A stretch of 64,000 bases of DNA from Octopus sinensis (lineage: Eukaryota). The position numbers and the translations under genes were made by a program. The stretch lies in assembly GCF_006345805.1 (NCBI RefSeq), contig NC_043002.1, positions 43,152,001 to 43,216,000 on the forward strand, written 5' to 3'. This document shows positions 43,801-46,800 of this stretch, piece after piece; positions within the stretch are counted from its first letter, which is position 1; every line of letters starts with the position of its first letter. A model generated the notes under the pieces. It saw only the letters and a program-made list of their open reading frames with translations. It was not told where the DNA came from and did no database searches.

Positions 43801-46800
43801 TTTATACCCTACAGAGTTATATATACCCTACAGAGTTGTATATAAGAGAAAAACAAATTGGACAACATACATACATGTGTATGTGTATGCACACATTCGC
43901 TCACGCATATATCAACAGCTTTATAGATCCATTACAGCCGATTGTACTAACCGGCTTCGCAGCGATTTTAGATAACCGGACGTTTGTGAAAGAAGTGTCC
44001 TCCTTGTAGAAGGCCGGTATGCAAAAATGGCCTCTAGTCCCATTGTGGTGGAGACACACACACACACACACACACACACGTACACGCACACACACGCGCA
44101 CACGCGCACACGCACACACACATACACTCTTACACATATATGGATGTACGTGTATGTATGAATGTATATTACATACGTGAATAGAAAATCGCGCGCGTGG
44201 TAATGTTTTACACATAATTCCAATTGATTTTTTCTTTACTCTGTTTATCTGAAAAAAGAAATCCTTCTATTTTATGTTGACAAACTGTATAACATACAAT
44301 AATTTGGAATTCATCCAACGGTCAAACGTGTTAGAAGTTTTAACTTGCTGTCTATAAACTACTTACCTTATTTTTGATATTTAATTCAGCCATATTATTT
44401 TTTCCAGATATTTATGAAAGATTCTGTGCATTTTACCTTAAGAAAAGAGCAGAAAGCGCATCAAGAAGTGATGGCATCTGAAATACAAGCGGAGGACAAC
44501 GAAAGTGATGGATCTTCAGTTATGAGTGATACTATCAACGATACACGTGAACCATCAATAGATATGTCTATTAATATCCCCGTAACAAAAGAAGAAGATT
44601 TTGATGACGAAAGTGACTACGTCGATTCTCATTTCGCAATAGAGGGACTGAAAGGATCACTAAGGAGAAGAAAAGGCTCCAAAGCTTCTTTTGTAAGTTA
44701 TTTTCAGACTGTAAGATTCATTTTTTATAATACCATTAACAAAAACTTAGTTGGTGAGATAGTTAAAACAACTGAAGAGCCATTGCAATTCATCACTGGT
44801 ACTTGACTCTTTCCTATACGAAATATACAAATGAACTCCTTATCATTACACTTGCTTGGTGTTATGGCGGGTTATATATATATATATATATATATATATA
44901 TATATATATATATATATATATATATATATATATATTTTTAATCAATATAGGGTGGCAAAAAAAATTTTGTAGAATTTTTTTGCCACCAGCGGCCTAGTGG
45001 GAAAAAATTAAATAGTCATATACCATTTTTAAGTTCAACATCACAATCAAGGAACGGCCATAATAGGCCATTCACCCACTAGAAATAACAGCCAAAAGCT
45101 TTAACCGCAAAATAACATCAATTCCGTAAACCAGGAGAAAATTTAAAAAACATTTACCCTGTAATTTCTTATACGATGCACCGTTTCGTCTACTGTTTAA
45201 TGGTAAACTAACCTGATTAAATTAAATCAAGCCAATCTACCATAGGCCCTTAGATTCATCAGTAAGAAATAGCCAAGTTGGAACAGATATTTTTCACGAG
45301 GCAGGGACGAGAATGCCTCGTGAAAAATATCTGTTCCAACTTGGCTATTTCTTACTGATGAATCTAAGGGCCTATGGTAGATTGGCTTGATTTAATTTAA
45401 TCAGGTTAGTTTACCATTAAACAGTAGACGAAACGGTGCATCGTATAAGAAATTACAGGGTAAATGTTTTTTAAATTTTCTCCTGGTTTACGGAATTGAT
45501 GTTATTTTGCGGTTAAAGCTTTTGGCTGTTATTTCTAGTGGGTGAATGGCCTATTATGGCCGTTCCTTGATTGTGATATATATATATATATATATATATT
45601 ATATATATATATATATATATGTATGTATATGTATATGTATAAGACCAAAAGGGTTCGGGCGCCGCTATATATATATATGTAAAAAACATATATGTATATA
45701 TATGTGTGTGTGTGTGTATATATATATATATATATATATATACATATAACAAATAGTGAATTATTAAACCGGGCAAAATACTTCATAAGCTCTCTGTTGG
45801 CACACGAGGCTAACAATATTACTTAGATTAGTGAAGAACGCCTAGTAATCTTTTGATAAAGTCGCAAGTCATGGTTCATCATAGTTCTTTGCTGTAAATC
45901 CGTGGATGGGTTCCAGATAAACTAGTTTTTACAAAGTGATATATTAAAAACAATGGTCATTACATATAATTCCATTATTAGAACAAATTTGGCATATATC
46001 TGTTTCTAGTAATCATTATAGGAACATTACTGATAGGTTTACTTAGTTGCTTTATTGATCAGTTGAGGGAAATTGAACGATCTAAGAAAATTAAAGCTAC
46101 TTTCGTCAAAGGCATTTCTGGAAATAAAAATCAGAGCACGAGGTACGACTATTGTGTGGGGAAGGTGGGGGGAAGACTGGGATGTTCAAGGTTCAAGTAG
46201 AATAGAGAACAGAAGACAAGTCGCAAAGGGGAGTGAGCAAGTAAGGGAGTGGTACGGGAGTCACTTAGTAGTAGTAGTAGTAGTAATAGTAGTAGTAGTA
46301 GTAGTAGTAGTAGTAGTAGTAGGAGGAGGAGGAGTATTGTATTGCCAAATTTGGAAGAGGGACCGTCACAAACATGGATCAGCCTCCATTACCATATTAG
46401 TATTGTAACCTATGTATAATGCCAATATGGTAATGAGAGCTGACCCACGTTTGTGACTGTTCCTCTTCCAAATTAGGCAATACAATACCTCTACAACAAC
46501 AACAACTACTACTACTACTACTACTACTACTACTACTACTACTACTACTAATACCAAGTGACTCCCGTACCAGTGATATCGTGGTAGTGGTTGATAATGG
46601 CATTGTCTACATCGGAGTTGTTGGCGATGGTGGTAAATGTCACTGTAGCAGTTGGTGAAGGTGTTGCTTGTATGTGCCCTTCTTGTAGTTGTTGAAAAGT
46701 TAGTGGCTGATGGCAGCAACAATCTTCAATGCGGCAAGTGAGGACTGTAGCGGTGGTTGGGGCGACGGCGGCAATAGTATCAATCACAGTCGTCATGGTG

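Follow-up and report, generated by a model that had tools for sequence, protein, structure and literature searches.

The 64,000-nucleotide (nt) stretch of the Octopus sinensis genome analysed here (contig NC_043002.1, C6:43152001-43216000; in the following called the window) harbours a perfect palindrome with a hammerhead ribozyme motif in each arm. This palindrome probably represents the single insertion of a non-coding retroelement, a tandem repeat with an approximately 491-nt unit that carries the hammerhead motif, which was placed head-to-head into a (TA)n microsatellite, likely in one retrotransposition event of the type performed by Penelope-like elements (PLEs). Its arrangement is the standard layout of a large (TA)n-targeting retroelement family rather than the trace of a special event at this locus. 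To the question of what mobilises animal hammerhead retrozymes, the octopus family adds architectural evidence from an invertebrate genome; the main value of the analysis lies in the statistics of this architecture rather than in the single locus.

Architecture of the palindrome

The two arms of the palindrome (45040-45303 and 45314-45577 of the window, 264 nt each) were found by repeat search and by direct reading to be 100% complementary, with 0/264 mismatches and a gap of 10 nt between them, which bears out the 264 base pair (bp) palindrome with a 10-nt spacer described in a first-pass annotation of the window. The arm limits given there are valid for the palindrome as such, but not for the left arm as a stretch of family sequence, which continues in antisense orientation past 45040 to 44938 with a 102-nt tail that is unmatched in the right arm, leaving arms of unequal length (366 nt on the left versus 264 nt on the right). 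In a BLAST comparison with a natural unit of the repeat family, window positions 44938-45303 correspond to unit positions 365 to 1 on the minus strand, with the left-arm end at unit position ~369 having been placed by eye. Natural tandem units read ...CGAGGCA GGGACGAGAA TGCCTCG..., a hairpin with a 7-bp stem and a 10-nt loop, and at the window junction the two arms overlap by 7 nt within the stem of this natural hairpin. The exact 38-nt junction has a single occurrence in the whole 2.72-Gb genome assembly.

The sequence of the assembly might alternatively have been generated by a fold-back artefact, with a chimeric long read or an assembler error creating an inverted duplication that is absent from the animal. 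The 100% identical arms separated by a very short spacer have the classic look of a fold-back read, and the junction is seen only once in the assembly. This explanation fits poorly, however, because each arm halts at a family-wide terminus and abuts (TA)n, because the unique sequence that follows differs between the two sides (44600-44864 and 45894-46000 are covered by contigs from four runs), because a fold-back read would mirror the unique flank too while the arms here are unequal, and because the turning point is the unit's own hairpin without any adapter sequence. As the same layout with other junctions is also present at 28 other places, we regard an artefact as very unlikely. Public data comprise 24 sequencing runs in the form of assembled Logan contigs, none of them on record as RNA. 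In the contigs that fall on 44600-46000 (X1, X2, X4, X7), the repeat is represented by contigs of 60-90 nt, and the contigs of the unique flanks halt at the microsatellites. Among the contigs listed for 45262-45338 (X2, X4, X5, X13), none bridges 45296 to 45304, which counts neither for nor against the junction, since a single-copy branch among k-mers of very high depth was likely pruned. One contig of X13, a run that is only guessed to be RNA, carries family sequence, which does not in itself establish expression.

A young family of non-coding tandem units

A genome search with the palindrome arm gave 1987 first-look candidates in the assembly that contains the window. The 53 matches scored, derived from 40 of these 1987 candidates, show 96-100% identity, the full-length ones 98-100%, and among the scored matches copies identical across all 264 nt were found on four other contigs. 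In natural arrays, units of 485-511 nt follow each other head-to-tail with one hammerhead motif per unit. The reference unit has a length of 491 nt and is numbered such that unit position 1 corresponds to window position 45314, with the predicted cut after unit position 132. It has 36.5% G+C and contains no open frame longer than 43 amino acids (aa), and its dispersed copies consist of one unit or form arrays, the longest of which exceed 12 units. Judged by its sequences, the family is young, large and non-coding, with a tandem unit of ~491 nt. The high similarity of the copies and the absence of differences between the arms uphold the very recent insertion claimed by the first-pass annotation, whose overall reading stands with respect to the observation and its recency, but overlooks that the palindrome is the family's standard layout.

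Long arrays with 12 or more units and a length above 6 kb were observed at C27:13110-19900 (L067) and at C5:109206049-109212279 (L084). The array on C27 is more diverged (92-94% to the reference unit), with an expanded A run in the second hairpin of the unit and a degraded 3' strand of hammerhead helix II, and looks like an older, satellite-like array.

Orientation, termini and target of the insertions

The window and 38 further places of 9-10 kb each, found with two different parts of the unit, were mapped onto the reference unit by BLAST. These places are the best-ranked ones of the search and as such a non-random sample. The orientation 'minus then plus', in which the 5' ends are turned towards each other, was found in 29 of the 39 places and a single orientation in 10, with the reverse arrangement 'plus then minus' in 0/39. 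Two of the 10 single-orientation places (L075, L085) contain short inverted arms that were seen by eye and missed by BLAST, and the sole plus-minus neighbourhood lies between the two copies of a duplicated module in L068. All outer ends are situated at unit 262-268 or unit 365-373, and among the 28 inverted insertions in which both ends were seen, 26 possess one of each terminus (binomial P = 1.5e-6), the exceptions with two like termini being L064 and L080. Equally, the insertion in the window, with its termini at unit ~369 (left) and unit 264 (right), has one of each. In 35 of 38 places, both ends have a (TA)4 or longer tract no more than 40 nt away, and in the other three this applies to one end, as compared to 8.9% of random positions in the same stretches. 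The inner junctions, on the other hand, differ among places, being located at or near the first hairpin (window, L077), in the second hairpin (L075/L020) and at numerous further positions. That a long end is combined with a short one in spite of such different inner junctions therefore implicates the integration step.

The opposite arms of one locus show a mean difference of 0.66% (20/81 pairs identical), as compared to 1.63% for copies from different loci (291/7851 pairs identical), and the units within one locus are near-identical, with no mirrored variant pattern between arms. These data bear on two alternative origins of the palindrome. Since the family strongly targets (TA)n, some tracts should have received two independent insertions, which could lie side by side in opposite orientations, and L064 indeed holds a separate second insertion ~500 nt away; yet no (TA)n lies between the arms, the junction being within unit sequence, and double hits would give all four orientation pairs instead of 29 'minus then plus' and none of the reverse, besides which arms within a locus are more alike than copies from different loci. 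We consider such a double insertion to be extremely improbable. A rearrangement after insertion, with a single-orientation copy being present first and a replication template switch at the hairpin taking place later, would be in line with the identical arms and with a junction exactly in the 7-bp inverted repeat, as fold-back template switching during replication is known to occur at hairpins. The right arm, though, is devoid of unit 265-369 and hence provides no source for the left arm. If the right arm was itself the copy, a random replication event would have had to end precisely at unit 264, which is the canonical short terminus of 30 other sampled places, and to rejoin (TA)n. As it also leaves the pairing of a long with a short end in 26/28 loci with very different inner junctions without explanation, a later rearrangement is unlikely. 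From the orientation, termini, target and arm similarity in the census, the palindrome is therefore probably the smallest form of the usual two-armed insertion of this family, originating from a single event. The census counts are large enough for testing models of the poorly understood integration step.

The same inner junction was observed on two chromosomes, in L068 (C15:20046473-20048812) and L081 (C21:32639539-32640676). At this junction, the minus arm ends at unit 339/340 and the plus arm starts at unit 134, one base past the predicted cut. In L068, the entire two-armed module is tandemly duplicated, with 0 differences between the modules over unit 1-264. The shared junction could mean that a variant propagates, that a segment was copied or that the junction arises recurrently.

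Table 1. Features of the insertion in the window and of its (TA)n target site
Position	Strand	Feature	Basis
44871..44937	.	(TA)n microsatellite followed by TTT, left half of the target site	sequence reading
44938..45039	-	Tail, antisense unit ~369 to 265, present in the left arm only; 'long' terminus	BLAST; terminus shared by other loci
44950..44987	-	Second natural hairpin of the unit (GGTGGC-A run / T run-GCCACC), within the tail	self-match 44987-44951, 81%
45040..45303	-	Left arm of the palindrome, antisense unit 264 to 1	repeat search, BLAST
45164..45270	-	Hammerhead motif of the left arm; ribozyme sense only in a minus-strand transcript	type I scan
45297..45320	+	Hairpin of the unit, 7-bp stem CGAGGCA/TGCCTCG with 10-nt loop, where the arms meet	
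45304..45313	+	Spacer GGGACGAGAA, natural loop of the hairpin in sense orientation, unit 482-491	
45314..45577	+	Right arm, sense unit 1 to 264; 'short' family terminus ...GATTGTGAT	
45347..45453	+	Type I hammerhead motif in host-gene sense, predicted cut 45445/45446	
45578..45640	.	(TA)n microsatellite, right half of the target site	

The hammerhead motif

A scan for type I hammerheads recovered the motif that the first-pass annotation had placed at 45347-45453 on the + strand, together with its mirror at 45270-45164 (-), and equally the features that had been ascribed to it, namely a stem I of 8 bp, intact CUGAUGA and GAAA segments, a GUA cleavage site and a stem II extended by a long hairpin. 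Helix I (AUUUCUUA/UAAGAAAU) has an open end, as is characteristic of type I. The core is composed of CUGAUGA at 45355-45361 and GAAA at 45430-45433, which provide the required C3 U4 G5 A6 N7 G8 A9 and G12 A13 A14. Helix III is a 4-bp stem (ACGG/UCGU) with a palindromic UGCA loop, after which an A completes the triplet GUA, and the cleavage site possesses an A15.1-U16.1 pair and an H17 that is not G. Helix II consists of 4 bp followed by an internal loop and a 19-bp hairpin, amounting to an insert of 68 nt. A motif with a helix I of at least 6 bp and a helix III of at least 4 bp occurred in 3/200 block-shuffled windows, and in the 64-kb window no further hammerhead motif was found, bar a weak one at 50691-50529 (-) inside a reverse transcriptase open reading frame (ORF).

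The closing pair of helix II (10.1-11.1) varies among 128 copies, of which 64 have A·C, 59 have A-U and five have A·G, consistently within each locus. Position 11.1 (C or U) thus splits the family into two locus-consistent subfamilies, with the window copy representing the weaker A·C form. The helix pairs are kept in 116-128 of the 128 full copies, and the mean minor-allele fraction is 0.8% in the core versus 1.6% outside the motif, a weak signal. Self-cleavage of the hammerhead is predicted from these features, and two units could pair with each other through the UGCA loop and its stem, by analogy to dimeric hammerheads.

A proposed route of integration

The family would behave as a non-long terminal repeat (non-LTR) retrozyme that is transcribed, cut by its hammerhead and perhaps circularised. 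The RNA of an array or a circle could then be copied by the reverse transcriptase and GIY-YIG endonuclease of a PLE at a nicked (TA)n, with two antiparallel complementary DNA (cDNA) arms being produced from one RNA template. The second arm might arise by twin priming, in which the same template is also used by a primer on the other target strand, or the end of the cDNA might fold back, and the arms would subsequently be joined by short complementarity, for which the 7-nt inverted repeat of the unit's hairpin might provide the microhomology for the strand switch. The near-identity of units within a locus fits a single homogeneous or circular template. Extended beyond the octopus family, animal hammerhead retrozymes may integrate as two-armed units with antiparallel arms and one long and one short terminus at nicked (TA)n as the footprint of PLE enzymes, with their own hairpins as switch points and with introns gaining hairpins that bury the ribozyme; we put this forward tentatively, as a possibility to which we give somewhat less than even weight.

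Several findings weigh against a self-cleaving retrozyme inserted by a PLE-type event. With respect to integration, the data do not separate twin priming from cDNA fold-back, and the unit has no similarity to 36 PLE loci (the PLE at the start of the window, 30 of 5029 GIY-YIG candidate loci and five loci with an intact ORF). Furthermore, the tail of the octopus family is ~102-105 nt long, whereas a length of 30-40 bp has been given for PLE tails (Craig et al. 2021, PMC8557442). With respect to the ribozyme, the pair closing helix II in the window copy is an A·C mismatch in place of a Watson-Crick pair, helix II is burdened with the 68-nt insert, and the active fold of 45340-45460 has a computed energy of -35.1 kcal/mol as compared to -38.1 kcal/mol for an alternative pairing of UGAUG with CAUCG. 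No Rfam hammerhead model matches at the gathering score in the whole window, nor at E<=10 on 801 nt, on 131 nt or on the unit of the A-U subfamily. Finally, inner 5' ends are located within 8 nt of the predicted cut in 8/69 cases with 2.4 expected, but a comparable cluster is present at unit 424-440 (17 nt), with 7/69. As these positions cluster equally, the enrichment near the predicted cut is non-specific and was not counted as a cleavage footprint.

Relation to Penelope-like elements

Insertions of PLEs are described as 5'-truncated partial tandems, to the 5' end of which a further 5'-truncated copy is often directly attached in inverted orientation. They have a tail at one end only, their mechanism is called undefined, and the Naiad group of PLEs has an insertion bias for (TA)n (PMC8557442). 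The partial tandems, the inverted 5' copy, the one-end tail and the (TA)n target are common to the octopus family, which differs from PLEs in having a unit without an ORF for reverse transcriptase or endonuclease and would thus be non-autonomous. The (TA)n bias has been published for Naiads, which reportedly lack canonical hammerheads, whereas the octopus unit carries a hammerhead motif (PMC8557442).

PLEs are abundant in the genome that contains the window, as indicated by the 5029 first-look candidates for GIY-YIG. A young PLE of ~4.0 kb with an intact ORF of 781 aa and flanking (TA)n is present at L131:2321-6312 and L132:2372-6371 in copies that are 97.9% identical, and several more of the GIY-YIG candidates have this 781-aa open frame. 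Inside this element no canonical hammerhead core and no similarity to the 491-nt unit were found. It is a candidate partner by target preference and no more. A long interspersed nuclear element (LINE) enzyme, and not that of a PLE, may alternatively mobilise the unit.

At the start of the window, a PLE fragment was observed with a GIY-YIG ORF at 140-610 (-) and an ORF of 235 aa at 511-1215 (-). Upstream of the window (L100, C6:43144001-43154000), weak PLE matches recur at a spacing of ~4.41 kb, a pattern that suggests a tandem PLE.

A second, unrelated hammerhead-like repeat with the same head-to-head layout next to (TA)n is located at L131:6964-8068 (C6:12735263-12736367). Its inverted arms of 336 and 237 nt are 99% complementary and lie between (TA)n tracts, with copies of its motif at 7268-7329 (-) and 7829-7890 (+). 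This motif has CUGACGA, a helix II closed by G-C, GAAAC, a helix I of UUUUGG/CCAAAA and a palindromic CAAUUG in the position of helix III.

Relation to retrozymes, hammerheads of Penelope-like elements and LINE-1

Type I hammerheads in animal tandem repeats have been described as non-LTR retrozymes that are expressed as circular RNAs (Cervera & de la Pena 2020, PMC7229834). With these, the octopus family shares a non-coding AT-rich tandem unit, one type I motif per unit, dispersal in about a thousand or more copies and the palindromic loop of helix III, and a mismatch at the base of helix II also has a precedent, with U·U in HHR_Amex2 of the axolotl versus A·C in the octopus copy (PMC7229834). 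On the other hand, the 491-nt octopus unit is larger than those of corals, mussels and the axolotl (330-350 bp in the latter), and the octopus motif differs in the 68-nt insert and 19-bp hairpin of helix II, the 8-bp helix I and the 4-bp helix III (PMC7229834). In addition, unlike the known retrozyme class, it matches no Rfam model. Because curated models miss the long helix II insert and the non-G-C closing pair, model-based or tight-descriptor censuses of retrozymes would overlook such families.

The pseudo-LTRs of PLEs also carry type I hammerheads (Cervera & de la Pena 2014, PMC4209133). Likewise of type I, the octopus motif resembles these in its long helix II with an irregular nucleotide at the 5' base, in a small palindromic helix III suited to dimers and in the low expected activity of a single motif. 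In contrast, its helix III is not minimal but forms a real stem of 4 bp, its helix I has 8 bp versus 4-5 bp and its helix II is far longer (PMC4209133). As read from its sequence, the family may therefore be described as working like a non-LTR retrozyme and being inserted like a PLE, which would fit both published descriptions.

Retrozymes have been proposed to be non-autonomous PLE derivatives, a case that rests on co-occurrence and on pseudo-LTR homology in vertebrates (preprint 10.64898/2026.07.22.740005). The octopus family contributes evidence that differs in kind from this vertebrate evidence, namely a PLE-like insertion architecture in which an inverted head-to-head copy is combined with a one-sided tail and a (TA)n target. 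As the word 'inverted' is absent from the available text of PMC7229834 (supplements aside), that paper appears to describe neither the head-to-head layout nor the paired termini nor the (TA)n target, and in the available text of the preprint the word is found in the reference list only (supplements aside). A search of the literature found no account of hammerhead retrozymes in cephalopods. The octopus repeat annotation paper PMC13282606 likewise contains neither 'hammerhead' nor 'ribozyme' in its text, supplements aside.

The octopus insertions also resemble the inversions of LINE-1, in which twin priming is said to place an inverted 5' segment head-to-head with a direct 3' segment in one event, often with microhomology at the junction. 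The segments of LINE-1 reportedly derive from different parts of a unique RNA, whereas the octopus template would be repetitive or circular, giving rise to overlapping arms and a palindrome. Furthermore, inversion is the rule in the octopus family (29-31/39 places), whereas in LINE-1 it is reportedly a minority outcome.

The host gene and the fate of the hairpin in RNA

On the + strand of the window, myosin-head exons are situated at 17804-18142, 22597-22845, 33675-33971 and 42000-42284, and Chitin_synth_2 exons are present on the same strand at C6:43261516 and C6:43267783 (region to 43267974), 45.5 and 51.8 kb past the end of the window. Chitin synthases that carry a myosin domain at their N-terminus are known from molluscs, and the exon order is consistent with a myosin/chitin-synthase fusion gene that would span more than 98 kb with repeat-filled introns. 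The placement of the palindrome in a chitin synthase intron by the first-pass annotation is plausible with these same-strand exons, the strand of which also agrees with its assignment of the + copy of the hammerhead to the sense pre-mRNA.

In a computed fold of the + strand transcript, the 538-nt stretch of the palindrome forms one hairpin with an energy of -478 kcal/mol. Pairing of the two arms in the host pre-mRNA would enclose the sense hammerhead in a 264-bp hairpin, and since the antisense arm is made first and the loop has only 10 nt, the hammerhead would be buried while it emerges. The competition between duplex and ribozyme proposed earlier holds as far as computed energies go (-478 versus -35.1 kcal/mol), and according to these the ribozyme at the palindrome locus is probably inert. 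The 264-bp hairpin is a plausible candidate substrate for enzymes acting on double-stranded RNA, with editing, for which the first-pass annotation had proposed ADAR, or dicing as possible outcomes. As a perfect inverted repeat in a likely chitin-synthase intron, it is, on the one hand, a hazard for assembly, polymerase chain reaction and replication and, on the other hand, a source of long double-stranded RNA. If two-armed integration holds true, transcribed introns would be seeded with perfect long hairpins, which could feed RNA editing or small-RNA silencing of the family.

The host gene might alternatively use the hairpin or the ribozyme to regulate its own transcript. The element is present in the sense of the likely myosin/chitin-synthase transcript, and conserved intronic hammerheads exist in amniotes (cited in PMC7229834). 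Such an exaptation is nevertheless hardly credible, as the insertion, with 0 differences between its arms and identical copies elsewhere, is too young for signs of selection and is built like the other sampled insertions of the family, besides which retrozymes are depleted from vertebrate introns (preprint 10.64898/2026.07.22.740005).

The same putative intron region contains a stop-free frame of 1000 aa at 50525-53524 (-) with RVT_1 and zf-RVT domains, encoding a LINE-type reverse transcriptase, and more reverse transcriptase fragments are located at 54808-57540.

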